DNA of 64,000 nt, from the NCBI GenBank assembly GCA_937923145.1, contig CALAJT010000024.1, positions 3,563 to 67,562 on the forward strand. Reading direction: 5' to 3'. Position numbers and translations under genes: made by a program. Origin of the DNA: an uncultured Rubritalea sp. (GTDB taxonomy: Bacteria; Verrucomicrobiota; Verrucomicrobiia; Verrucomicrobiales; Akkermansiaceae). The notes under the pieces are model-generated. The model did no database searches. It saw only the letters and a program-made list of their open reading frames with translations, and was not told where the DNA came from. This document shows, in pieces, positions 9,804-23,339 of this stretch. Numbering within the stretch: position 1 is the stretch's first letter; each line of letters begins with the position of its first letter.

Positions 9804-10541
9804 ATGACAAAAATTTTGATCACAGGTAGGTCAGGCAGAATGGGGCAGACACTCATCGAAGCCACAGCAGCTAATCCAGATTCTGAACTCGGTAATACTC
9901 ATGATAGTGGAGAGGATCTGAGCGCAGCTTTCACTGGCGTGAATGCAGCTATTGACTTCACTGTGCATAGTTTTACGAAGGACGTAGTGGCTGCTGCTAT
10001 GGCATCTAAAACTCCACTAGTAATAGGTACTACAGGACACACGGATGAAGAAAAAGAGGTGATCAAAAAAGCTTCAGAGACTTTACCTATCGTGTTTGCG
10101 TCTAACTTCAGCGTAGGAGTGAATACTCTCTTCTGGCTTACTAGAAAAGCAGCGGCTGTTCTAGGAAACGAACGTTTCGATATAGAAGTCGTAGAAATGC
10201 ACCACCACCACAAAATTGATGCACCATCTGGAACTGCTCGCACACTTTTAGAGATCCTCAATGAGGAGACTAATACCAGCTATGAAGGTGATGTAGCTCA
10301 CGGCAGAGTAGGCAACATTGGTGCCAGACCATCTAAGGAAATCGGTATGCACACCCTCCGCGGTGGTGATGTAGTGGGCGACCACACTGTTATGTTCGCA
10401 GCAGATGGCGAGCGTATAGAGCTGACTCACAAGGCGAGTAGTCGTATGACCTTCGCAAGCGGAGCTGTCCAGGCTGCCGTATGGCTTCAGGATAAGCCTG
10501 CTGGACTTTATAACATGCAGGATGTGCTAGGCTTAGTCTAG
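9804..10541 (+). CDS. dapB: 4-hydroxy-tetrahydrodipicolinate reductase
   Basis: GRSGRMG, VIGTTG, NFSVGVN and EMHHHHKIDAPSGTA motifs. Confidence 0.97.
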   Translation: MTKILITGRSGRMGQTLIEATAANPDSELGNTHDSGEDLSAAFTGVNAAIDFTVHSFTKDVVAAAMASKTPLVIGTTGHTDEEKEVIKKASETLPIVFASNFSVGVNTLFWLTRKAAAVLGNERFDIEVVEMHHHHKIDAPSGTARTLLEILNEETNTSYEGDVAHGRVGNIGARPSKEIGMHTLRGGDVVGDHTVMFAADGERIELTHKASSRMTFASGAVQAAVWLQDKPAGLYNMQDVLGLV

Positions 10542-10546
10542 GAATT

Positions 10547-11056
10547 ATGGGGAATCGTGTCGGTATAGCCCTGGGATCTAACCTAGGGAATCGTCTCACA
10601 CATTTACGTGAGGCTAGAGATATGCTGCGTGGACTCGTAGAGGAGGACACTCTCTATCTACAAGCTCCCGTTTATCAATCTGAGCCTGTTGACTGTAGTG
10701 ATCGTTCACCAGATTTTTTTAATACCGTTGTAGAGATCGACTACATTGGTGAGCCATACGACCTACTCATGAAGACTCAAGGGATAGAATTTCATCTAGG
10801 TCGGGAAAGTGTCTATGAGGTTAACGCTCCCAGAATCATCGATCTAGATATTCTCTATTTTGGAAATGAAGCGATGTGTGATGAAATACTTAGTATTCCC
10901 CACCCTCGACTTTTGGACAGGAGATTTGTCCTTCAGCCACTCAATGAGATCAGACCTAATTTGATATTACCTGGAGACCAGATCACTATCTCTAGGCATC
11001 TGAGGCATTTAGAATCAGATGAACCTCCACTCACACTTGTGCAGACCACTTGGTAA
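10547..11056 (+). CDS. folK: 2-amino-4-hydroxy-6-hydroxymethyldihydropteridine diphosphokinase
   Basis: IALGSNLG, FFNTVV, PRIIDLDIL and IPHPRLLDRRFVLQPL motifs. Confidence 0.95.
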   Translation: MGNRVGIALGSNLGNRLTHLREARDMLRGLVEEDTLYLQAPVYQSEPVDCSDRSPDFFNTVVEIDYIGEPYDLLMKTQGIEFHLGRESVYEVNAPRIIDLDILYFGNEAMCDEILSIPHPRLLDRRFVLQPLNEIRPNLILPGDQITISRHLRHLESDEPPLTLVQTTW

Positions 11057-11077
11057 TTGTTAGAAACAAAGATTAGC

Positions 11078-11851
11078 ATGACAGGATTAGAAAAAGCGGA
11101 AAAAATAAGGAATCAAAAAGGTTCAAAACCAGTCAGCTGCCTGACAGGCTATGACTATGCCACGGGAAGACTGTTAGATGAAGCGGGAGTAGATCTCATT
11201 CTCGTGGGAGACTCTCTGGGGATGGTCGTGCTTGGTTTTCCAGACACTACGCATGTTACTATGGAGCACATGCTGCACCACACTGCAGCAGTTGCCAGGG
11301 GAGTGGAAAAGGCTCTCGTGGTAGGCGATTTACCTATTAATTCTTACGATACTCCGTCTGAGGCACTCCGTAATGCACATAAACTAATCAAGGCAGGTGC
11401 CGATGCCGTAAAGCTCGAAGGTGGTCTGAAGCAGATCAAGAAAGTAAAGGCCATAGTCGAAGCGGGAATCCCAGTCTTCGGACACATGGGGATGCTACCG
11501 CAGCGAGTCTTAGAAGAGGGTGGTTATAAAAAGAAAGGGAAGTCAGACAGGCAAACTGAGGATATTATAGAGGGGTGCTTAGCGCTTCAAGCTGCAGGAT
11601 GTTTTGCTGTCGTCCTAGAGAGCGTGGTAGGTAAATCTGCGGCTAAGATTACTAAGGCATTAGCTATTCCGACTATCGGTATTGGCTGTGGAGAAGGGAA
11701 TTGTGATGGAGAAATAGCTGTCATCACTGACGTGGTAGGAGCTTATCCATGGTTCGTCCCACCCTTTGCAACTGTGAGAGCAGATGTAGCTGGAGAGACT
11801 AAGAAAGCTGCTAAGGAATATGTCGATGCAGTGAAGCGGATCGGAAGCTAA
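11078..11851 (+). CDS. panB: 3-methyl-2-oxobutanoate hydroxymethyltransferase
   Basis: LTGYDY, LVGDSLGMV, GDLP, VKLEGG and PTIGIG motifs. ATG 11078 preferred over the track's TTG at 11057. Confidence 0.96.
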   Translation: MTGLEKAEKIRNQKGSKPVSCLTGYDYATGRLLDEAGVDLILVGDSLGMVVLGFPDTTHVTMEHMLHHTAAVARGVEKALVVGDLPINSYDTPSEALRNAHKLIKAGADAVKLEGGLKQIKKVKAIVEAGIPVFGHMGMLPQRVLEEGGYKKKGKSDRQTEDIIEGCLALQAAGCFAVVLESVVGKSAAKITKALAIPTIGIGCGEGNCDGEIAVITDVVGAYPWFVPPFATVRADVAGETKKAAKEYVDAVKRIGS

Positions 11852-11900
11852 ATTATTTCTCACTTGAGACATCGGATTTGTTTGGTAACTTACGAAATAT

Positions 11901-12353
11901 ATGAAAAGTCCACTCTCTAACAAAAACATCAGACGTCCTTATATCACTATGCCTGGAGCCACAGGTATGCCAGATATGAAAGACATCTTAGCGTCGATGC
12001 CTAAGGAGCAACAGCACCGCTTCGAGTCAGCTGGGGAATTCATAAAGCGTCTTGCGCATCGTGTTTCGAAATGGAGAGAATCACTACCAGAAGATGAGAT
12101 CCCAGTAGTTCTAACATTTCTCCCGACTGGAGATGTAGTAGAGGTGTTAACACTAGGCGAAGATGGTCACTCTAGTGTGGTTATCGAGGGTCAGGTAAAT
12201 GATTCACCATGTATGTTCATTTCCCACCAAGCCAGTCTACAGATTCTCTGCTATACCAGAAAAGTAGAGGAAGATGATTCTGAAGGCGATTCAGAGCCTG
12301 CTCCTAAAAGAACCATAGGTTTCCATGTTGGGGGGGAGGAAATAGAAGCTTAA
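11901..12353 (+). CDS. Conserved hypothetical protein, DUF6173-like
   Basis: The pattern RL...L..D...G....HQ.SLQ.L...P.R.IGF resembles DUF6173 as I remember it; not verified. Confidence 0.5.
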   Translation: MKSPLSNKNIRRPYITMPGATGMPDMKDILASMPKEQQHRFESAGEFIKRLAHRVSKWRESLPEDEIPVVLTFLPTGDVVEVLTLGEDGHSSVVIEGQVNDSPCMFISHQASLQILCYTRKVEEDDSEGDSEPAPKRTIGFHVGGEEIEA

Positions 12354-12482
12354 GTGTAATACTAAAAATTACGAATCATTCTGTAGATATAGTGTGCCTA
12401 TTATTCCCCAAAATTATAGCATAAAGGGTAAAGTATCTGATTTTTCTTGTAATGTCATCGTGCACTGGTGGAATGCGGGGAT

Positions 12483-12496
12483 GTTATTTAAATAAC
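12483..12496. promoter_or_regulatory. 14-bp perfect palindrome, candidate operator upstream of the MFS-dehydrogenase-cupredoxin unit
   Basis: GTTATTTAAATAAC is self-complementary and lies about 54 bp before ATG 12550. It is AT-rich, so it could be chance. Confidence 0.3.
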
Positions 12497-12549
12497 TTTT
12501 ATTTGAGAAGAATTTCCTCAGATAATGAAGTAAACACCCAAAATATAAT

Positions 12550-14238
12550 ATGACTATACCCAAGTGGCTATTGAAAGAATCGATTATCGCAAAACCAGGA
12601 TTTAACCGATGGCTAGTAGCTCTAGCATCTATAGCGATTCATTTATGTATTGGTTCTGTTTATGCTTGGAGTGTTTTTAATGCTCCTCTTTCTAAGGAAC
12701 TAGGTGTTGTGGGGCAGTCAGCTAGTGATTGGAAATTTGAGCAGGTAGTATGGATATTTAGTATCGCAATTGTCTTTTTAGGATTATCTGCTGCGGTCGC
12801 TGGGCGTTGGCTAGAGAAGGTCGGTCCACGTTGCGTGGGTGTCTCTGCGGCATTGCTGTGGGGTGGTGGATTTTTAGTAGGTTATTTGGGAATTAAGTTT
12901 CACAGCCTTCCGCTACTTGTCTTCGGATATGGTGTTTTAGGCGGCTGTGGTCTCGGACTCGGCTATGTATCACCAGTGAGCACACTGATACGTTGGTTCC
13001 CTGATAGACGTGGACTAGCCACAGGATTAGCTATAATGGGCTTCGGTGGGGGAGCCATGATAGGAGCTCCGCTCAAGCGCTCACTTCTCAATCAATTTCA
13101 AGAAGCACCTCAGTATGTAGGACCTGCTCAAACCGTGCAAGTGGTCACAGAAGATGGAAAGAGATTTGCTCAGGTCGGTGGCGACAAGAAGGAAGTAATC
13201 GTAGCCTCTGAAGAAGATGTAGCATCATTCGGTAGCGATGCATCAGCTGGTGTCTACCTAGTAGGAACTGGCTCCACGGGAACAGCGACCACATTTTTAG
13301 TGTTAGGAATCGGATACTTAGTAGTGATGATCCTAGCTGCCATGGCGTATAGAGTCCCCGCAGAGGACTGGAAGCCAGAAGGCTGGGACCCACCAGAAGA
13401 CGGTAAACAGAAGAAGATGGTGACTTCGGGGAATGTCGGTATCTCAGCGGCTATGAAGACGCCACAATTCATCCTTCTCTGGATCGTGTTATGTATGAAT
13501 GTCACAGCAGGTATAGGAGTGATAGGTGTGGCGAAAACCATGATCGGCGAAATTTTCGGCTCTCAACTCAGCGCTGATGGCAAGTCTGGATTCTTCTTCA
13601 TGAACTACGTTCTAATGATATCTGTGTTCAATATGGTAGGCAGGTTTTTCTGGGCTAGTATTTCTGACTGGATCGGACGCAAGACTACCTATACGTTATT
13701 TTTCGTTATAGGAATTTGTTTATATCTATCTATCCCGTGGGCTGCGGCTAATGCTGGAGCGTCTACTACGTCTGCTGCATTTATTACATTCTACGCAGCG
13801 ACTATGATTATCTTCACTATGTATGGAGGTGGATTCGCTACGGTACCTGCGTATTTGGCAGATTTGTTTGGGTCTAAATTCGTCGGAGCTATTCATGGTA
13901 GGCTGCTCACAGCTTGGAGCACTGCTGGAGTTATCGGTCCTGTGGCTATCGCAAAGCTGAGAGAATCTTCTATAAATAGCTCGATCAATGATCTGGCATC
14001 GAAAGCGAATCCAGAGGCATTTCTAGCGAAGTTTGGTGCTCCTGTAGATAAACTTAATGAACTTGTGGCAGCTAAGACAGTCACTGTGCAAAAACTGATG
14101 GAAATAGTGCCAGAAGGAATAGTAGACCCGACACCGACACTCTACAACACGACGATGTATACTATGGCAGGACTACTTGTCATCGGTCTAATCGCCAATA
14201 GTTTAATCAAACCAGTAGACTCAAAGCACCACCTTTAA
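12550..14238 (+). CDS. OFA (oxalate/formate antiporter-like) family MFS transporter
   Basis: IHLCIGSVYAWSVF, GGCGLGLGYVSPVSTLIRWFPDRRGLATGLAIMGFGGGA, GRFFWASISDWIGRK and YGGGFATVPAYLADLFG motifs. Confidence 0.9.
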   Translation: MTIPKWLLKESIIAKPGFNRWLVALASIAIHLCIGSVYAWSVFNAPLSKELGVVGQSASDWKFEQVVWIFSIAIVFLGLSAAVAGRWLEKVGPRCVGVSAALLWGGGFLVGYLGIKFHSLPLLVFGYGVLGGCGLGLGYVSPVSTLIRWFPDRRGLATGLAIMGFGGGAMIGAPLKRSLLNQFQEAPQYVGPAQTVQVVTEDGKRFAQVGGDKKEVIVASEEDVASFGSDASAGVYLVGTGSTGTATTFLVLGIGYLVVMILAAMAYRVPAEDWKPEGWDPPEDGKQKKMVTSGNVGISAAMKTPQFILLWIVLCMNVTAGIGVIGVAKTMIGEIFGSQLSADGKSGFFFMNYVLMISVFNMVGRFFWASISDWIGRKTTYTLFFVIGICLYLSIPWAAANAGASTTSAAFITFYAATMIIFTMYGGGFATVPAYLADLFGSKFVGAIHGRLLTAWSTAGVIGPVAIAKLRESSINSSINDLASKANPEAFLAKFGAPVDKLNELVAAKTVTVQKLMEIVPEGIVDPTPTLYNTTMYTMAGLLVIGLIANSLIKPVDSKHHL

Positions 14239-14268
14239 TCGACATTTAGAAATTAACAACACACATAT

Positions 14269-15660
14269 ATGAAAAGAAAAAACAGAACAATAAAACTAGC
14301 TAGTGCAGTCTCTACGCTTGGGTTAGGCTTAGCATTAGGAGTGTCCACAGCGACAGCTCAGGAAGCAGCATCGATGATTCCTACTAAAAAAGAGAACGTA
14401 ACTCAGCCGGGCAAGTCAAAATTAGCGAAGCCTGTGAAGATCGCTATGGTGAAGGTAGCAGGAGATTTGATCGACCCGATCAATGTTACTTCGGCAAATG
14501 ATGGAAGCGGCAGAATGTTTATATGCGAACGTCAAGGAGTCGTGAAAATACTGAAAGATGGGAAGATCCAGAAGCGTCCATTCCTAGATATTTCGGACAC
14601 AGTAGTGAGCTCATTTTTAGAGCAAGGACTCTATGACATCGAGTTTCACCCTAAATTTAAGACAAATGGTAAGTTCTACGTTCACTATTCTGACATGTGG
14701 TTCAATGGTGATTCATTCATCGTGGAGTACACAGTGGATAAAGAAAAGCCGGATAAGGCAGACATGAAGAGTGCTAGAGTGATCATGCAAATCGATCAAC
14801 CTTACGCGAACCACAATGGTGGTGAGCTAGTATTCGGGCCTGACGGTTATCTCTACATCGGATCTGGTGATGGTGGTTGGGAAGGTGATGTTCTCAATGC
14901 AGGACAAGACCTCAGCACACTTCTCGCTAAGGTGCTAAGAATCGACGTAGACCAATCTACTCCAGACCGTGCTTATGGAATCCCTAAGGACAATCCATTT
15001 GTGACTCCTAAGAGCCAGATGGTTCTCTTCGGTGTGACTGAAGAAGCATTTGCTAAAATTCAGCCAAACGCGAGACCTGAGATCTGGTCTTATGGTATCC
15101 GTAACCCTTGGAAGATGCACTTTGATAAGAAGACCGGTGATCTCTACATCGCTGATGTAGGGCAAAACCACTGGGAAGAAATTAACTTCCAGCCAGCAAA
15201 CTCTAAAGGTGGTGAAAACTACGGATGGAAGTGGATGTGCGGAACTCATCCTTTCCCTCTCAGCAGAGTAAATGCACCTACAGTAGGGGTCCTACCTATC
15301 GGTGAATACACCCATGCTGGAGAAGGAATCTGCGTCACAGGACTCGGTGTTTATCGTGGTTCTAAATACCCATCTCTCGACGGTACATACTTCGTCTCTG
15401 ACTGGGGATCAGGTAAGATCTGGGGAATGCAACACACGGCTGATGGCAAGTGGGCTATGGAAGAACTTCTAGATACAGCTCTCATGCCAAGTGGGTCTGG
15501 TGCTGATGAAGACGGCACTATCTACATGACTACTGCTACAGCTAACTATGGTGGACCAGTGAAGCCAGCAGACAACGTGCGCGGAGCACTATGGATGATG
15601 GTAGAAGCTGATAAAGTTCCTGAAGGGGCTGAGACAATTCCACTCGATGGTAAAAAGTAA
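14269..15660 (+). CDS. Secreted PQQ-dependent sugar dehydrogenase (glucose/sorbosone dehydrogenase beta-propeller family)
   Basis: Sec signal peptide, plus EQGLYDIEFHP, NHNGGELVFGPDGYLYIGSGDGG, YGIRNPW and DVGQNHWEEIN motifs. Confidence 0.9.
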   Translation: MKRKNRTIKLASAVSTLGLGLALGVSTATAQEAASMIPTKKENVTQPGKSKLAKPVKIAMVKVAGDLIDPINVTSANDGSGRMFICERQGVVKILKDGKIQKRPFLDISDTVVSSFLEQGLYDIEFHPKFKTNGKFYVHYSDMWFNGDSFIVEYTVDKEKPDKADMKSARVIMQIDQPYANHNGGELVFGPDGYLYIGSGDGGWEGDVLNAGQDLSTLLAKVLRIDVDQSTPDRAYGIPKDNPFVTPKSQMVLFGVTEEAFAKIQPNARPEIWSYGIRNPWKMHFDKKTGDLYIADVGQNHWEEINFQPANSKGGENYGWKWMCGTHPFPLSRVNAPTVGVLPIGEYTHAGEGICVTGLGVYRGSKYPSLDGTYFVSDWGSGKIWGMQHTADGKWAMEELLDTALMPSGSGADEDGTIYMTTATANYGGPVKPADNVRGALWMMVEADKVPEGAETIPLDGKK

Positions 15661-15682
15661 TACTATCTAGAATAATATATTA

Positions 15683-15720
15683 CGCACTACCTAAGGCTTA
15701 AAATAGCAGGAGGTAGTGCG
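15683..15720 (+). other. Intercistronic stem-loop between the dehydrogenase and cupredoxin genes
   Basis: CGCACTACCT (15683-15692) and AGGTAGTGCG (15711-15720) form a perfect 10-bp inverted repeat with an 18-nt loop. Confidence 0.55.
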
Positions 15721-15741
15721 ATTTAATCTGAAAAACTAATT

Positions 15742-16338
15742 ATGAAAAATTCTTATAAACTACCCACTCTAGCTTTATCTATACTAGCGGGATTTACTGG
15801 TCTGGTAACTGCCGATGAAGAGGCAAAAAAAACTGGTGAGAGTAAATGCTGCACAGTTCTTCCAGTGTCAGTTATTACAAACCCAGTATTCATCAAGCAA
15901 GATGCTAAGAAAAAAGAAGTCGAAGTCTTCATCACTGCTACCTTTGATAAATCAAACTACGGTATGAATTTCAATGGAGTTTCTAAAAGTGAAGGCGGCT
16001 ATGAAATCCCTCTAGACTGGAAAGTGAAAGTAACATTCACTAACAACAGCGCTGTGCCACATAGCTTAATCGTAGTGGAAGCTGATCTAGCAGCTCGTAA
16101 GATCAACCTTGGAGATACACCTTATTTCGATGGAGCCAATACTCCAAAGCCGAACACATTAGGCACTACTAACAAAGTAGAGAAATTCGAATTCACTGCA
16201 GACGAAGAAGGTGAATATTCATTTGCATGTGGTTTCCCTACGCACTCTGCAAATGGACACCGTATCTATCTGAATATTAAGAAAGATCTTAAGGAAGCAA
16301 AATTCATCATGCCTCCTGCTGCAAAAGCTGCAGAATAA
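15742..16338 (+). CDS. Secreted sulfocyanin (SoxE)-like cupredoxin
   Basis: Signal peptide, then NFNG, IPLDWKVKVTFTNNSAVPHSL, FDGANTP and GEYSFACGFPTHSANGH. Predicted Cu ligands are His107, Cys163 and His168. Confidence 0.8.
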   Translation: MKNSYKLPTLALSILAGFTGLVTADEEAKKTGESKCCTVLPVSVITNPVFIKQDAKKKEVEVFITATFDKSNYGMNFNGVSKSEGGYEIPLDWKVKVTFTNNSAVPHSLIVVEADLAARKINLGDTPYFDGANTPKPNTLGTTNKVEKFEFTADEEGEYSFACGFPTHSANGHRIYLNIKKDLKEAKFIMPPAAKAAE

Positions 16339-16638
16339 ATAGTCTAAGATATCCTGTATCCTATTAATTACATTTTACGTATTTAGTAGGATCAGTATAT
16401 TTTATCATTATTATTACTGTTAGAGCCTTTATACCTCTAACTAATTTTCCTCTAAAGTCCTACATTAAGGGCCCTAGAATAGGTCCTGTGACAGATTTTA
16501 TAATGTTAGCCGGTAAACCTAGTGTGCGTTTTACCAGAGGTGCACCGCATGAGGTAAGTAAGGAGGAAATGAGTGCTAGTAAGAGTAAACGGTGAGCTTT
16601 CATAATGTATGTCTGGGAGGGTTATTGTTAAAATTATT

Positions 16639-17835
16639 TTATTCTGAAATTGATGCAGGTGATGTCGTAGGATCTGTTTCTGCATTATAGTCGACTCCAT
16701 CGATCCCGAAACCAAATAGCTTGAGGAATTCTTGTTGGTAGCCTGCATAGTCTGCAAGCTCTCCGATGTTATCATTGGAGATTGTGTCCCACGATTTTGC
16801 TATAGCAGATTGGATATCGTCGCGCATTTCCCAGTCGTCGATGCGGATACGCTGAGCTTCATCAAGCTGGAGATCTCCTCCGTAGAGACGGTCAGCGAAT
16901 AGGCGCTGGATTTGCTCAATACAGCCTTCGTGTAGTCCTTTAGCCTTCATTTCCTTATAAAGAATGGATATGTAGAGCGGAACTACAGGGATAGCTGATG
17001 ATGCTTGAGTCACGAGTGCCTTATTTACTGAAACGTAAGATTCTCCGCCATATTTTTCACCTAGCTTAGTATTGAGTCTGTCGCTGACTACTTCTAGATC
17101 CTTCTTAGCTCTTCCAATAGTTCCATCTGTATAGATAGGCCACGTGAGTTCAGGTCCGATGTAGGAGTATGAAACTGTCTTAACTCCTTGAGCTAGCACG
17201 CCTGCTTCGTCGAGCGCATTCATCCAGAGTTCCCAGTCTGCACCACCCATTACTTTAATGGTGTTGTCGATTTCTTCCTGAGTTGCCGCTCCGATTGTAA
17301 CTTCCTCGATGAGTCCTTTGTCTGTATTAAGGTTTTTATTTACGTATTCACCGTCTGTAGTCTTGAGCACTGAGCGGTAGTCTTCTCCTGTGTCAGGATC
17401 AATCCTGCGTGGAGATGCTAGTGAGTATACTACGAGATCGATAGGTCCCATATCGTTCTTAATGATCTCTACTGCCTTTGCTTTCATCTCGTGAGAAAAT
17501 GCGTCTCCATTGAGAGATTTAGCAACGAGACCTGCGTCTGTAGCTGCTTTCTCAAAAGCAGCAGAATTATACCAACCTGCAGTGCCTGTGCGCTTTTCTG
17601 AGCCAGGCTTCTCGAAAAAGAGTCCTAAAGTATTCGCTCCTGAGCCAAATGCAGAGACGATACGCGATGAGAGTCCATAACCAGTGGATGAACCAATCAC
17701 GAGCACGTTTTTAGGTCCATCGGCGATCTCGCCTTTAGATTTTACGTAGTCGATTTGTTCTTGAACGTGAGCAGCACAGCCGTCTGGGTGTGATGTGATA
17801 CAGATGAAGCCTCTTATTTTTGGTTTTACGATCAT
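16639..17835 (-). CDS. fabV: Enoyl-ACP reductase FabV / trans-2-enoyl-CoA reductase
   Basis: [40 protein letters not shown] and [12 protein letters not shown] motifs. Start placed at 17835; the track's extension to 17964 overlaps the upstream gene. Confidence 0.95.
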
Positions 17836-17899
17836 AAAATTTATTAGTTTGAAGTAGAGCAGAAGTCTCTGATGAATCAGTGAGGAGGTCAAGAAACAA

Positions 17900-20800
17900 C
17901 TAGCGGACAATGACCGCCTTTGGTGGATTAAAAAGCTTACCTTTAAAACCACGTTCGACATCAAACTGAACAGCAGTCCATCGAGGATTCTTGTATTTTC
18001 CTTTGCCCCTTACTTGGAGTAATCCTGAGACCTCAGCTTTCTTGTTGAGGAAGAGCGCTCTAAGAACATTTATGGGAAGGCGAATAATCTCTGCGCCTAA
18101 TTCCATAGTTTTACCTATGAGTCCACGATAGTTAATACGGATAGTCAGATCCATACTATCTGTTTTAAGGTCTACCCAGCCAGCACCTGTGAATGTCATG
18201 CTGGTGGTGAGAGATTGGATGTTATCTGTGCGTAAGATTCCTTTCTGAATGGTGAAGTTAGCGGACATGTTTTTTAGGCGTTCACTGAGATGACTTTTCT
18301 TGGGAAGTAGGGGATTGAGAATGAGACTGATGGGACCTAGTACAGGTGCTGAGAAGATATTACCTTTATCGAGCGAGATATTTCCAGAGGCATTGAAGTT
18401 TCGGATGTTATCTCCACGTCCTGTGAAATGGATGTTTCCAGTGAGCTCACCCTGCGGGATCTCGTCAAAATTATAGGTTATGCCGATGTTGCGGAAGTTG
18501 AGCTTGAGAAAGTTAAGGTTGCCTATGTATGATTCATCGTCAGCACCTGTTAGAGAAACTTTTATCTCTCCTTTTAAGGCTCCTTTGAATGTCGAAGCGC
18601 TAATATTATTTACCGATACAGAGTCTTTTTTTACGTGAATATTCGCCTTGAAATTATTAAGCATCAGATTGCCATCGAGTAATGTATACATTACCTTGCT
18701 TGATGGGCAGGCTATGTTGCACTTGAAGTCTACTTTAGAATCCTTCAGTGGTTTAACTTTAGTATCGAAGATACCTCCAGCTCTAATCTCAGGAGGATCA
18801 AAAAACTTATATTCTTCTAGATGATCAGCACTTTCCTGATGAAACATCCTAGCTACAGGAGCAGGGTAAGCTTTACCGTAAGCATTATTGATAGCTACTG
18901 TGTGGCTGTTAAAATCTGCGATGACTCGATCGACTTTGAGATTTCCCTCAGAACGTTTTGACCTGTTGTAGTTTTTAAGGGAATATTTTGAGTAGTCGAA
19001 AACTAGGTGGATTTCATCTGCCACGAGGCGTTTAGGTGTGAGATCATAAGATGTGGTGAGTCGATTAAGTGGCACTTTGTTAAATAGAAATTTTGTGACA
19101 TCTAATTTTCCGACTGCATTCCAATCCTTTGGATTACTCCTGTTTACTCGACCTTTAGCCTCTACCCTGTAAGTGGATTTACTGTCATACTGCGCAGTGA
19201 GAATAATCTCTTTAGTATTATTATTTTTTACAAGAGGGACATAGAGGTGGGGGTTCAGCGTAGAGACTAAGTCAAAATATACATAGCCATCCTCCGCGCT
19301 GATAGCTGTCCCAGTGAGTGATCCTGATGAGTGTTTGATATCTATATCGTTGATGTCTAACTGACTTTTGTAGAAGAAACTGGCTTTGAGGTGATCGAGT
19401 GTTTGACCTTTGAATACTGGCTTAGTGACATTGATCTTACCTGCTAGTCCTTGCTTATTGTTAAGGATGTTAGTGTCAAGTTGCTGAAATGTAAATCCAT
19501 TGATGTCTACCTCTTTAAAAGTAATATTTCCACTAAGTGCACCATCTTTGTTTTTAAGGTTAGAGTTTATCTCTCGGATGCTGATGTTCTTAGTAGGGAT
19601 TGTTGTGTTTTTTAGACTGAAGATCCCTTTATTCCACTTTAGGGTAGTTTCGACATTGTCCAGCATTGTGCTTCCTAGCTGAAGCCCATCGACCTTCAGT
19701 TGGGTAGTGAGGAATTTATTTTTCCAAGCGAATTTAGTGCTGAGATTTTTCACGATGTAGTCATCAGCGTAGATAACCTTACTCAGTCTTACCTCACCAT
19801 CAGCATCCCAGTCAGTGAGATCAGCGGCATTAATCTCTCCGGAGGACTTAAAGTAACATGATGAGCCCATCTCTACGGTCACCTTTGAGAGAATATCTTT
19901 CACCTTAGCATTCTCTTTAAAGAATGGTTTAAAGCTTCTGAGAGGTAACGAAGACTCTGCATCAAATAGAATTTTCTGATCCTTAATGAGCAATCTAGCC
20001 TGAAGATATCCATCGTTATTCTCAGCTTTTAGACCGTCTAGATAGAGGTCTCCTGCATTATAAGAAAAATCAGATTTAATGATATCGAAGTCTGTTCCTA
20101 GATAACTGAAGTCTCCGAGCTTAGCATCTCCTCTAAGACTGATTTGATTTCCTTTAAATGGAGTTAAGAAGGATGGTAGTGCTGAGGCGTATGGAACTTC
20201 TTCCATACTTTTCTCAATCTGGAATTTTCCATTAGCCGTGAAGACACTCTTGTTAAACTTAGTGCCTTTTAGAATCTCTCGGTCAAATAACTCTCGGGTA
20301 AAGTCTTTTAAATGAATGTCGCTCTCTATCTTGAAGCTTCCGGCATGACTACCTAGATCAAAATTTCCAGCTAACAATGCTGAGCGTAATTTTCCGTTAT
20401 TCATATTCCAGAAGTTCAGTTTATCCACACTCACTAAGTTGTGGCTAAGTTCACCGGAGATGACTAGGTCTTCCATGGTGAAATTTTTACGCGTGATGCT
20501 AGGAGCTTTTCCAGTGAATTCCAGTTTGATGTGCTGTGGTGCATTTATGTCACCCTCTGCGGTAATATTGATTACTGGTGGGGAGTCTGCTGGCCAACGC
20601 CAATAAGCCAGCTTTTCTAGGAAGCTCTCGTATGCCAGCGCACGCTTAGTAGCGGCATCTTCGTCTATATCACCAAGAGGTTTCTCTCCTTGCCATAGGT
20701 TGCCAGTAAAATTGATATTTACGCCTTCGTAGGATGCTGTCAGTAATTTTGTGAAGATAGTATTATTATCTGGAAAATCTATGGTGCCGCTGATCTCGCT

Positions 20801-21202
20801 TAGTTTCACTCGTGTGCCATTTGGGTCCTTAGGGTCTAGAGGAACTTCTAGGTGACCATCGATGAAAGTCACACTATTAAGTTTATGGATTCCTCTAAGT
20901 AACTTGGTCTTATCGAGATTGATATTGATGCTAGGAAGACTGGCTATTTTCGACTGCTTAGTCTCATCCGTATAGACAGTGACGCCCTCAGCCACCAGTC
21001 CTGAGGTAAGTTTATAGGAAAGACTATCAAACTCCACATACATGCCGCGACTGGCTAGCTGTTTAGAGATCATGGTACGAATATCTTTATTAAGTCCCTG
21101 ATTATTCAGATAGAGGACGCCACCTACTATAGTCGTAAATCCGACCACAAAGATCAAGATCAGTGCGATGCGTAGACGGAATATGAGGCGGCGTAGGAAC
21201 AT
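17900..21202 (-). CDS. AsmA-like (YhdP/AsmA clan) envelope protein
   Basis: 1100 aa with an N-terminal TM anchor, long beta-strand-rich body and an AsmA-like C-terminal region ([31 protein letters not shown]). Confidence 0.7.
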
Positions 21203-21336
21203 TAAGTTAGTAGACTGCTTAGTATGCTTAAAAATGGCATAGATAATACCTCAGCGCAACACTTTGTCTTTAACAGAATTAGTAAAAATAGCGATGATGG
21301 CTTGACCTAGACTACAGTTCAAATCACGTTTCATGC

Positions 21337-22365
21337 ATGAAGCAATGGCAGTATAATTTAGCTAAGAATATTCTTTTCAAACTAGACGCAGAGAAAGCTC
21401 ACCATGTCAGCATGAGTGCCTTGCGAAAAGCGGAGAAACTAGGAACCCTAAAATCACTCGCAGGTAAAGTCCCACAATCTAAGTCTGTAGAGTGCATGGG
21501 ACTCACATTCCCTAATCGAGTAGGACTTGCCGCTGGGTTAGACAAAGAAGGAAATACCATCGACGCTCTTGGACGTTTAGGGTTCGGATTTATCGAAATT
21601 GGCACCATCACTCCAGTGGCTCAGCCTGGCAACGAAAAACCGAGGCTCTTCCGTATCATTGATAAAGAGGCAATCATTAACCGTATGGGGTTTAACAACT
21701 GTGGAATCGAGCAGGGAGTCAAAAACGTCGAATCAGCAAAAACTTATGATGGTATAGTCGGTTTTAATATAGGCAAAAATAAACTCACACCTAACGATGA
21801 TGCAGTCAGCGACTACCTCAAAGCACTCCGTGGTTGCTGGGGAGTAGCAGACTACGTGACGGTCAATATTTCATCACCTAACACCCCTGGTCTCAGAGAC
21901 CTTCAAGCTGCAGACGACACCGCACGGCTTCTAGAAGCTCTAAAAAAAGAACAGCAAATTCTCACTAGAGACTCTGGAGTGAAAATGCCGATCACATTCA
22001 AAGTAGCACCTGATATGGGTGAGCCTCAGATCGTAGAACTTAGTAAGGTTTTCAAAGACGGAGGTCTAGAAGGTCTAGTAGCGACTAATACCACTATCGA
22101 TAGAACCGAGGTAGAAGGCAAACCTCATGCTACCGAAGCAGGAGGCTTATCAGGATCACCGGTGACGCAGAAATCCACAGAGGTAATCCGCACATTCCAC
22201 AGCCATCTAGGAAAGGACATTCCTATCATAGGGGTAGGGGGTATCATGAATGCTCAAGACGCACAGGATAAACTAGATGCAGGCGCTTCACTGATCCAGC
22301 TCTACACAGGATTCATCTATCACGGACCTCCACTAGTGCACTCTATTTTGAAGCATCTAAGCTAG
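21337..22365 (+). CDS. pyrD: Quinone-dependent dihydroorotate dehydrogenase
   Basis: GLAAGLDK, NRMGFNNCG, NIGKNK, NISSPNTPGLRDLQ, TNTT, GGLSG and QLYTGFIY motifs. Confidence 0.97.
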   Translation: MKQWQYNLAKNILFKLDAEKAHHVSMSALRKAEKLGTLKSLAGKVPQSKSVECMGLTFPNRVGLAAGLDKEGNTIDALGRLGFGFIEIGTITPVAQPGNEKPRLFRIIDKEAIINRMGFNNCGIEQGVKNVESAKTYDGIVGFNIGKNKLTPNDDAVSDYLKALRGCWGVADYVTVNISSPNTPGLRDLQAADDTARLLEALKKEQQILTRDSGVKMPITFKVAPDMGEPQIVELSKVFKDGGLEGLVATNTTIDRTEVEGKPHATEAGGLSGSPVTQKSTEVIRTFHSHLGKDIPIIGVGGIMNAQDAQDKLDAGASLIQLYTGFIYHGPPLVHSILKHLS

Positions 22366-22475
22366 TCTAGGAGATCAAGTCGATCAGTCTAAAATTGATA
22401 ATAAACGTAAATTTATTTTGATTTCAAAATCTATCAGGCTACTAATATATCAACTTAACCATAACTACTAAATCA

Positions 22476-23339
22476 ATGAATTATTATAAGAAATTTGTCT
22501 CCGCTGTTACAGCTATTACCTGCACAGCATCACTCACCAGCAACAGCATGGCTCAGTCTGCTAACCTATCTCTGCAATATGAGCCAGGCAAGCACTACTA
22601 CACTACTCAGAGCACCAATATGCTGATGGATATGGGACCAGGAATGCAGATGAATAATCTCATGGTGATGAGCATGAAAGGCTCATCAAAAGCACACGAA
22701 AAAGGTGTTGAAGTAGCTATCAACTATGAAGGCATGAGTATGAAGGTTAAGATGGGAGAGAATGTAGTAGCTCAATACGACTCTGCTAAAGAAGATAACA
22801 ATGCTGAGTTAGCAGCACAGCTAGACCCAATGCTCGATACAAAGTTTTCTGCGATTTTCTCTAAAGATGGCAAGTATATCGGAGCAGAAGGGCTAGACAA
22901 ACTCAAGTTAGATCCTAAAACAGGAATTACTAAAGAAACTCTAGAGTCTATGATGAAGCAAGGTTCTATCATGTTACCTAACCGTGAAATCAAAGTTGGT
23001 GAGAGCTGGCAAGCTGAGATCAAGGTGCCTATGCAAGGAGTGGGTAAAATGGAAATGAGCTTCGATGAGAAATTAGTTTCTATCGCTAAAATGGACGGTA
23101 GAGATGTTGCGAGGATCGAATTCACAGGCAAAATTAAGCCATTAGAAATGAAGCAAAATGGTATAGTCGTTAAGATTGATTCTAAAGAAATCACTGGAAC
23201 TATCTTATTCGACCTAGAGCTTCACCAAGCTCGTAAAACAGACATGAACATGGAGCTAATCATGGAAGCTGGCGGACGTAAAATGAGCATGACAGCAATC
23301 ACTACTCAGGAACTTACCAAAGTAGAAGACGCGAAATAG
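22476..23339 (+). CDS. Secreted hypothetical protein, DUF6263-like
   Basis: Signal peptide, LQYEPGKHYY, and LPNREIKVGESW beta-rich pattern. Confidence 0.55.
   Translation: MNYYKKFVSAVTAITCTASLTSNSMAQSANLSLQYEPGKHYYTTQSTNMLMDMGPGMQMNNLMVMSMKGSSKAHEKGVEVAINYEGMSMKVKMGENVVAQYDSAKEDNNAELAAQLDPMLDTKFSAIFSKDGKYIGAEGLDKLKLDPKTGITKETLESMMKQGSIMLPNREIKVGESWQAEIKVPMQGVGKMEMSFDEKLVSIAKMDGRDVARIEFTGKIKPLEMKQNGIVVKIDSKEITGTILFDLELHQARKTDMNMELIMEAGGRKMSMTAITTQELTKVEDAK

Follow-up and report, generated by a model that had tools for sequence, protein, structure and literature searches.

The window, a 64,000-nucleotide stretch of DNA from an uncultured Rubritalea sp., encodes a SoxE-family cupredoxin in which, by alignment, a histidine (His173) occupies exactly the axial-methionine column. 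The predicted copper site comprises His107, Cys163 and His168, with His173 replacing the axial methionine, and would form a natural Cys-His3 centre. On balance, we favour a reading of the protein as a periplasmic SoxE-family Cys-His3 cupredoxin that would carry single electrons from a GSDH-like dehydrogenase towards an oxidase, in concert with an MFS transporter that would import the acid product.

The cupredoxin open reading frame (15742..16338, + strand), which comprises a SoxE domain with the axial-position histidine, starts with ATG and encodes 198 amino acids plus a stop codon; the reverse strand of 15742-16338 holds many stops in the reading-frame check. The product passes the gathering score of the Pfam SoxE family PF06525 (41.9 bits versus 21) but falls far below the cut-off of the NCBIfam sulfocyanin equivalog TIGR03094 (43 bits versus 168.4). 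We therefore assign it to the SoxE family and not to the sulfocyanin orthologues, and sulfocyanin proper is ruled out. Database searches returned 72 homologue clusters (90% database) and 810 profile matches at E up to 1e-3 among 1.84 billion 50%-identity representatives. Together with the SoxE score, these matches exclude a chance ORF and mark the gene as real and conserved. Public annotations call the homologues 'sulfocyanin-like copper-binding protein', 'plastocyanin' or hypothetical. One marine metagenome run matched the window DNA, and none of the RNA runs did.

Residues 1-24 (15742..15813, + strand; MKNSYKLPTLALSILAGFTGLVTA, followed by DEE) were recognized by eye as a Sec signal peptide. 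The n-region is basic and the core hydrophobic, V-T-A precedes acidic residues, and a lipobox cysteine is absent; the protein is predicted to be secreted by way of this N-terminus. An AlphaFold2 model computed from an input alignment of 54 homologues reached a mean pLDDT of 80, with ten-residue blocks from residue 51 to residue 190 averaging 84-98. Values below 50 are confined to the signal peptide and to a tail (segment 19-43, containing C36 and C37) that connects this peptide to the first strand. The model confidently predicts a Greek-key β-sandwich of the cupredoxin type. Its top Foldseek matches are rusticyanin, auracyanin A and CuA domains (probability 1.0), with E about 4e-6 for rusticyanin 1rcy and auracyanin 2aan. 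The CuA structures resemble the cupredoxin by fold only: the CuA domain of oxidase subunit II or N2O reductase binds two copper ions through two bridging cysteines in a C-x3-C-x3-H-x2-M loop, which is absent here. The single cysteine in the cupredoxin loop rules out a CuA or PmoD-like binuclear site.

A check of residue numbering placed C36, C37, M75, H107 (in AVPHSL), C163, H168 and H173, confirming the ligand set H107, C163 and H168 and the loop C-GFPT-H-SANG-H173 reported in the earlier note. The loop C163-GFPT-H168-SANG-H173 spans 16228..16260 (+ strand), with H173 encoded by CAC at 16258-16260. His107 (V-P-H-S; 16060..16062, + strand), the putative N-terminal equatorial ligand, aligns to rusticyanin His85. 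In direct and profile searches of PDB sequences, rusticyanin H85, C138, H143 and M148 correspond to H107, C163, H168 and H173 with no gap in the loop. The loop aligns equally gap-free to CTYPAHYAGGM of auracyanin 6kol and CQIPGHAATGM of rusticyanin. This alignment, together with the SoxE score, upholds the earlier description of a sulfocyanin-like cupredoxin with rusticyanin/sulfocyanin loop spacing. The histidine on an upstream strand and the Cys-xn-His sequence in the loop joining the last two strands, which characterize cupredoxins, are present: H107, C163 and H168 are invariant in our alignment of close homologues (A1; 54 of the 72 homologue clusters, identity down to 38%) and in the Met- and Gln-type classes. 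The position at which cupredoxins carry methionine as a weak axial ligand, or else glutamine or a non-ligating leucine or phenylalanine, is His173. H107 is kept in all ligand classes, with one glycine among the 16 outlying His-type representatives.

Upstream of the ligands, the motif N72-Y-G-M75-N-F-N-G79 (15955..15978, + strand) is invariant in the alignment of the His clade, and its general form, N-x-G-x-NFNG, is common to the whole SoxE-like family. Position 75 is methionine in the main His clade and phenylalanine, methionine, leucine or tryptophan in Met-type relatives. M75 as an alternative axial ligand is unsupported, the column being generally hydrophobic in Met-type relatives (F/M/L/W) and leucine in the independent His-type domains of locus L015 (described below).

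Scoring homologues at the tenth residue after the loop cysteine (C+10), as the earlier note had proposed, yielded a near-uniform result in the close relatives. H107, C163, H168, G172 and H173 are all invariant in A1 (n = 54), and the labelled homologue clusters, where named, come from Akkermansiaceae, Verrucomicrobiales or Verrucomicrobiota MAGs. A genome scan using one genome per GTDB species identified 248 genomes with relatives, of which the best 80 were examined; with a top identity of 79%, none of these can be the window's own genome. The 80 loci all belong to Verrucomicrobiota MAGs (Akkermansiaceae, Verrucomicrobiaceae/Prosthecobacter, Opitutia, Chthoniobacter and Pedosphaera). Histidine stands at C+10 in 79 of these best 80 loci, and in the remaining one (L034) the ORF leaves the contig before the loop. 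Both histidine codons occur (CAC in 64 loci, CAT in 15), indicating that conservation acts at the amino-acid level. Sequence comparison thus shows that purifying selection on H173 is strong and extends over a large clade, and identifies the axial-position histidine as a hallmark of these Verrucomicrobiota. The lone close relative lacking it, P0053, carries asparagine; it is a truncated, in-frame fusion of a GSDH C-terminus to the cupredoxin in which H107 is also lost, and we therefore regard it as a decayed or mis-assembled copy.

We extended the count to 209 retrieved family sequences, drawn from the 810 profile matches, in which a script detected the loop motif. The C-x4-H-x3-G-X spacing is fixed in all 209. 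Residue X is methionine in 92, histidine in 87 (71 close and 16 other 50% clusters), glutamine in 18, leucine in 4 and serine in 3, while asparagine, glycine, phenylalanine, alanine and isoleucine occur once each. The close sequences with a CGFP.H...GH loop have histidine in 71/71. Given this mix of residues across the family, the C+10 column behaves as a tunable axial position, of which histidine is one natural state.

The same mix bears on whether His173 binds the metal at all. The histidine might be conserved yet non-ligating, leaving a three-coordinate or water-capped type 1 site like those of Leu/Phe-type laccases or the N. maritimus purple cupredoxin, and might serve as a second-sphere, proton-gating or docking residue. 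Leucine, phenylalanine, serine, glycine and isoleucine are natural in the same family column, so a ligand is not obligatory there, and the AlphaFold model places no metal. The axial histidine of azurin M121H reportedly dissociates at low pH. However, absolute conservation through both codons in >160 sequences exceeds what is usual for a non-ligating position; in Met-type relatives, by comparison, the column also accepts L, F, S, G and I. Loop length is the same as in Met-ligating relatives, and the sole frequent exchange partner of the histidine is glutamine, itself a ligand. In both axial-His precedents, moreover, the histidine is bound to copper (PMC4059628, PMC10804444). We consider a non-ligating His173 unlikely.

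For a ligating His173, the precedents also indicate what properties the site might have. Axial-ligand variation is a textbook handle for tuning the colour, geometry and redox potential of cupredoxins. The axial imidazole is expected to bind copper more tightly than a thioether would. In azurin M121H, the bound histidine gives a green site of type 1.5 (PMC4059628). In nitrosocyanin, a natural red cupredoxin from Nitrosomonas europaea, histidine is the fourth, bound ligand at the axial-methionine position, and glutamate replaces one equatorial histidine (PMC10804444). Imidazole adducts of type 1 chimeras give nitrosocyanin-like spectra (PMC6115626). On the strength of these three cases, we expect the Cys-His3 site to be tetragonally distorted and green to red instead of classically blue, with a potential below that of its Met-type relatives. 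The potential of nitrosocyanin is near +85 mV and that of PQQ/PQQH2 near +90 mV at pH 7; given this similarity, a low-potential acceptor would sit near its donor. A Met-type cupredoxin would also be thermodynamically able to accept electrons from PQQH2.

The relation to azurin Met121His is one of nominal ligand set, cysteine plus three histidines, with the extra histidine at the axial-methionine position in both. Azurin M121H is a laboratory mutant with a C-x4-H-x3-M loop and an extra Gly45 carbonyl, whereas the set described here occurs naturally, is conserved in hundreds of genomes and is carried on a rusticyanin-type scaffold. The loop of nitrosocyanin reads C-x2-H-x4-H, and the protein binds water. 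It provides a natural precedent for histidine at the axial-methionine position, but with glutamate for an equatorial histidine (PMC10804444), whereas the window protein keeps H107, invariant in A1. This precedent raises the alternative of a nitrosocyanin-like catalytic 'red copper' centre with an open or exchangeable position, acting on NO, nitrite, superoxide or the product of the dehydrogenase. Besides the shared histidine at the axial-methionine position, strong fourth ligands push type 1 sites towards a tetragonal, type 2-like geometry. The axial-position histidine is the only one of three nitrosocyanin features present in the cupredoxin; the glutamate replacement and sequence homology are missing. 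Nitrosocyanin chains did not appear among PDB matches at E up to 10, nor in the profile search, and no nitrogen-cycle genes were found near the cupredoxin among the scanned window genes. Domain fusions in relatives, described below, place the domain between dehydrogenase and oxidase instead. We give the catalytic reading very little weight.

The electron-carrier reading draws on the gene neighbourhood. The cupredoxin is the third of three co-directional genes separated by gaps of 30 and 81 nt. The first (12550..14238, + strand) encodes a 562-aa MFS transporter (Pfam MFS_1) of the oxalate/formate-antiporter or monocarboxylate (SfMCT L-lactate) type; it scores 317.7 bits against NCBIfam NF049980 (SfMCT), just below the cut-off of 320, and also matches the OFA family TIGR00890. 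The second (14269..15660, + strand) encodes a secreted, 463-aa GSDH/HHIP-like six-bladed β-propeller of the glucose/sorbosone dehydrogenase family (Pfam PF07995, E 1.7e-38), the putative electron donor. The best PDB matches of this propeller are the HHIP propeller (E 2e-37) and the bacterial PQQ sugar dehydrogenases 3a9g, 2ism and 2g8s. Its N-terminal half is closer to the cofactor-less vertebrate HHIP propeller than to characterized PQQ sugar dehydrogenases, and its C-terminal half holds the IWSYG(I/H)RNP and DEIN...NYGW motifs, as in the PQQ-dependent E. coli Asd (2g8s). The protein also weakly matches NCBIfam TIGR02604, a PVC-type GSDH-like domain. The usual partner of that domain is a CxxCH haem domain, which the cupredoxin, by analogy, appears to replace beside the GSDH-like protein. 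Further neighbours in the window are an enoyl reductase and a YhdP-like protein. A promoter and terminator scan of 11800-16800 returned nothing over shuffle expectation, leaving strand, spacing and synteny as the sole basis for the operon structure.

The MFS-GSDH-cupredoxin trio recurs in close relatives (L001-L004), in a marine TARA Verrucomicrobiales lineage that forms a separate 50% cluster (L007/8) and in L013. The order is GSDH-cupredoxin-MFS in a Kiritimatiellia MAG (L009/10), and is shuffled in several genome loci too. Among the best 80 genome loci, 44 carry a GSDH homologue immediately upstream of the cupredoxin in the same orientation, and 36 have an MFS homologue no more than 5 kb away, in variable order and always in loci that also have GSDH. 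Neither gene is nearby in the other 36 of the 80, which form a Verrucomicrobiaceae/Prosthecobacter-type clade with a CGFPAHA(I/A)NGH loop, so the dehydrogenase link is not universal. In a search for a shared partner in this GSDH-less clade, the neighbours inspected were a sigma factor, a VWA protein, an Mrp/NUBPL ATPase and an FAD oxidoreductase, all mutually unrelated. Linkage that survives rearrangement across classes is nevertheless good evidence of a functional unit, though this does not extend to all clade members. The scan of window genes from 9804 to 23339 identified neither PQQ biosynthesis genes nor oxidase genes.

Fusions in relatives connect the domain to dehydrogenases and to an oxidase subunit. 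SoxE domains occur at the C-terminus of eight-bladed PQQ dehydrogenases (PF01011), with axial glutamine in P0091, P0093, P0095 and P0112 and axial methionine in P0149 and P0175. At locus L015, on a 274-kb metagenomic contig, the gene order is CtaG, a 792-aa PQQ dehydrogenase, a Na/Ca exchanger, P0085, COX1, an uncharacterized ORF and another cytochrome c. The PQQ dehydrogenase of this locus ends in a His-type SoxE domain (…LPHS…CGVPGHAVSGHW…). P0085 opens with a transmembrane helix and a linker, continues with a His-type SoxE domain (CGVPGHAANGH) and the two CoxB helices, and ends with CuA and cytochrome c domains. His-type domains thus stand at both ends of a dehydrogenase-to-oxidase path, an arrangement that, judged from domain order, is an electron-relay architecture and not that of a copper store or small-molecule catalyst.

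Linkage and fusions together make it likely that the cupredoxin accepts electrons from periplasmic GSDH/PQQ-type dehydrogenases. In the scheme that we propose, the secreted GSDH-like, probably PQQ-type enzyme would oxidize a periplasmic substrate; the typical chemistry of the GSDH family converts an aldose to a lactone and then to an aldonate. The reduced cofactor would be reoxidized by the Cu(II) cupredoxin in two one-electron steps, and the Cu(I) form would pass its electron to a haem-copper terminal oxidase, directly or via cytochrome c. The monocarboxylate-type MFS transporter could plausibly import the acid product of the oxidation. Comparable arrangements are found in the amicyanin/methylamine dehydrogenase pair and in quinohaemoprotein (type II) alcohol dehydrogenases, in which a small, dedicated redox protein or domain encoded with, or fused to, a periplasmic quinoprotein dehydrogenase relays single electrons into the respiratory chain. 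Here, by contrast, the donor is a six-bladed GSDH/HHIP-like propeller with putative PQQ, and the carrier is a predicted Cys-His3 protein.

The N-terminal tail offers a different view of the protein. The Cys36-Cys37 pair (15847..15852, + strand), placed by the residue check, lies in its disordered part (pLDDT <50). The earlier note had listed the pair as unexplained; it is indeed present at residues 36-37, but it is not family-wide, and constitutes the Cys/His motif of one clade, always with R174. Relatives have R-C-C-T, H-C-H-T, Q-C-H-T or H-x-H at the equivalent position of the tail. CC and Arg174 co-occur in 42 His-type sequences, and only three CC cases have Trp, with CC in the leader; most HxH, HCH and CH forms of His-type sequences co-occur with Trp174. 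This pattern may reflect simple shared ancestry. Long His-rich linkers are found in the relatives P0092 and P0078 and in the Gln-type P0075. A Cys/His tail motif is present in only 4/83 Met-type representatives with an adequate tail, and is absent from several His-type members. From these comparisons, Cys36-Cys37 is best described as a clade-specific version of a tail Cys/His motif, not a feature of the family. In Cox17, Cu(I) is bound by vicinal cysteines, and a role of the tail in copper capture or loading is, by analogy, plausible.

Such a tail would also suit a protein of periplasmic copper handling (CopI-like resistance, sequestration or a chaperone) that captures copper through the Cys/His-rich tail and the cupredoxin site. 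The frequency of CC, HCH, CH and HxH tails in the His-type clade relative to the few Met-type cases agrees with this proposal, as do the His-rich linkers of some relatives. The CopI-like cupredoxin is encoded in a copper-resistance locus, is induced by copper and has a Cys-His2-Met site plus a His-rich N-terminal site. The window protein has a Cys/His tail motif, but its axial residue is histidine, and copper-resistance or export genes (cop, cus, pco) are found near the cupredoxin neither in the window nor in related loci. Its conserved neighbours instead encode a dehydrogenase and a transporter of the carboxylate type; in relatives, a PQQ dehydrogenase and oxidase subunit II each carry a fused His-type domain; and several His-type members lack the tail motif. 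A primary function in copper handling is, in our judgement, quite improbable.

In a rough, midpoint-rooted neighbour-joining tree of representatives, calculated without bootstrap, one clade holds 22 His-type and 4 Gln-type representatives and zero Met-type ones, and the His-type domain of P0085 groups among Gln-type domains. This topology suggests that axial histidine arose at least twice and that exchange between histidine and glutamine is easy. The nearest non-His relatives of the His-type domains are Gln-type, and histidine and glutamine codons differ only in the third base. The Gln-type sister P0076 has a GSDH gene 6 nt upstream, and the Gln-type domains of the SoxE family share the GSDH/PQQ-dehydrogenase association with the His-type ones. 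Like stellacyanin and auracyanin D, which have axial glutamine, the protein described here would have a strong N/O-donor instead of methionine; theirs is an amide, the one here an imidazole.

With rusticyanin, auracyanin and sulfocyanin, the protein has in common the fold, the SoxE domain, the P/G-H-S motif of the first histidine, the loop spacing and the four ligand columns, but those proteins have axial methionine where it has histidine. In place of an archaeal SoxM oxidase or the rus operon of iron oxidation, the context here is bacterial (Verrucomicrobiota), with GSDH and MFS genes. A SoxM-type oxidase partner is absent among the neighbours of the cupredoxin in the window, and a fusion to oxidase subunit II is seen only in P0085, a distant relative.

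To our knowledge, decades of work on the Cys-His3 set have been confined to engineered sites. Nitrosocyanin is the sole natural protein with an axial-position histidine, and the sole natural red cupredoxin, that we know of; its ligand set differs, and no function has been assigned to it. Our literature search, incomplete in coverage, turned up nitrosocyanin and engineered sites but no account of a natural Cys-His3 cupredoxin, and the PDB sequences searched include no solved structure with a native histidine at this loop position. A paper on DIET in M. barkeri proved irrelevant to a link between PQQ and cupredoxins. The earlier note's view that axial histidine is known mainly from engineering must thus be amended for nitrosocyanin (PMC10804444), while holding for the full natural Cys-His3 set, which appears to be undescribed so far.

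As a tentative, broader proposal, a natural, hitherto uncharacterized Cys-His3 centre may serve in Verrucomicrobiota, and through a separate origin in one or more other lineages, as a dedicated relay that passes electrons from periplasmic quinoprotein-type dehydrogenases to the terminal oxidase; the flexible Cys-Cys or His-x-His tail would act as a copper-loading arm or a switchable fifth ligand. The engineered 'type 1.5' site of azurin M121H would then have its natural counterpart in this centre. For bioinorganic chemistry, a large natural Cys-His3 family with a physiological context, namely a dehydrogenase donor and, in relatives, an oxidase fusion, would provide a native benchmark for the continuum from blue through green to red copper sites. 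For the organisms, the electron-carrier reading, if true, would mean that abundant marine and freshwater Verrucomicrobiota possess a copper-based, cytochrome-independent branch of periplasmic oxidation of sugars or related substrates.

The axial-position histidine of the cupredoxin is followed by an arginine (H173-R174, window 16258-16263). Position 174 is Arg in the subclade to which the window's protein belongs, while it is Trp in almost all other members of the SoxE-domain family, be they Met-, Gln- or His-type at the axial position. Family sequence comparison revealed that Arg174 is accompanied by the Cys-Cys motif of the predicted disordered N-terminal tail (C36-C37, window 15847-15852) in 42 sequences. 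Only three cases combine Cys-Cys with Trp174, and in all three the cysteines are located in the leader; most of the HCH, CH and HxH tail forms are accompanied by Trp174. The pairing of Arg174 with Cys-Cys could reflect shared ancestry, or it could arise from the tail physically touching the rim of the copper site.

In three relatives (P0092, P0078 and P0075), the His- or Gln-type cupredoxin domain is preceded by an extended N-terminal linker rich in His, such as HSHDHGDHSHPHGSHDHGDHSHAHGKHGHGAHEH. These linkers suggest a metal-binding tail. P0053, a 155-aa ENA metagenome protein, is the sole non-His member of the close family. In it, the C-terminus of the GSDH-like protein is fused in-frame to the cupredoxin at a point midway along the latter; H107 is missing and Asn replaces the axial His. 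The probable explanation is a pseudogene created by deletion, or else an artefact of assembly.

The GSDH-like propeller itself is encoded directly upstream of the cupredoxin (window 14269-15660). The best likeness of its N-terminal half is to the propeller of vertebrate Hedgehog-interacting protein (E 2e-37). By contrast, characterised bacterial PQQ sugar dehydrogenases match this half far more weakly, with E values of 1e-15 or weaker.

The ORFs downstream of the cupredoxin include three on the minus strand. The first, of 47 aa (window 16460-16603), is situated between the cupredoxin and an enoyl reductase gene and has a lipoprotein-like leader, MKAHRLLLLALISSLLTSC...; it had no Pfam match, and could either encode a small lipoprotein or be spurious. 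The reductase (window 16639-17964) is a FabV-type trans-2-enoyl reductase with three Pfam domains (E 8e-110). Its listed TTG start adds ~44 N-terminal residues and creates an overlap with the upstream 1100-aa ORF, and translation probably begins instead at the Met immediately ahead of the first domain, near residue 45. The sole match of the 1100-aa ORF (window 17900-21202) is a weak one to the YhdP C-terminus, at a sub-threshold 30.6 bits (cut-off 46), and its product may serve lipid transport in the envelope as a protein of the AsmA/YhdP type.

Elsewhere in the family, His-type SoxE domains occur within larger redox proteins. On a 274-kb JGI metagenome contig, one operon (L015:3423-12825) encodes a PQQ dehydrogenase bearing such a domain at its C-terminus, as well as a cytochrome oxidase subunit II in which an N-terminal His-type SoxE domain is combined with CuA and cytochrome c. 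Further genes encode COX1 (848 aa), CtaG and another cytochrome c. The operon looks like a self-contained dehydrogenase-to-oxidase chain.
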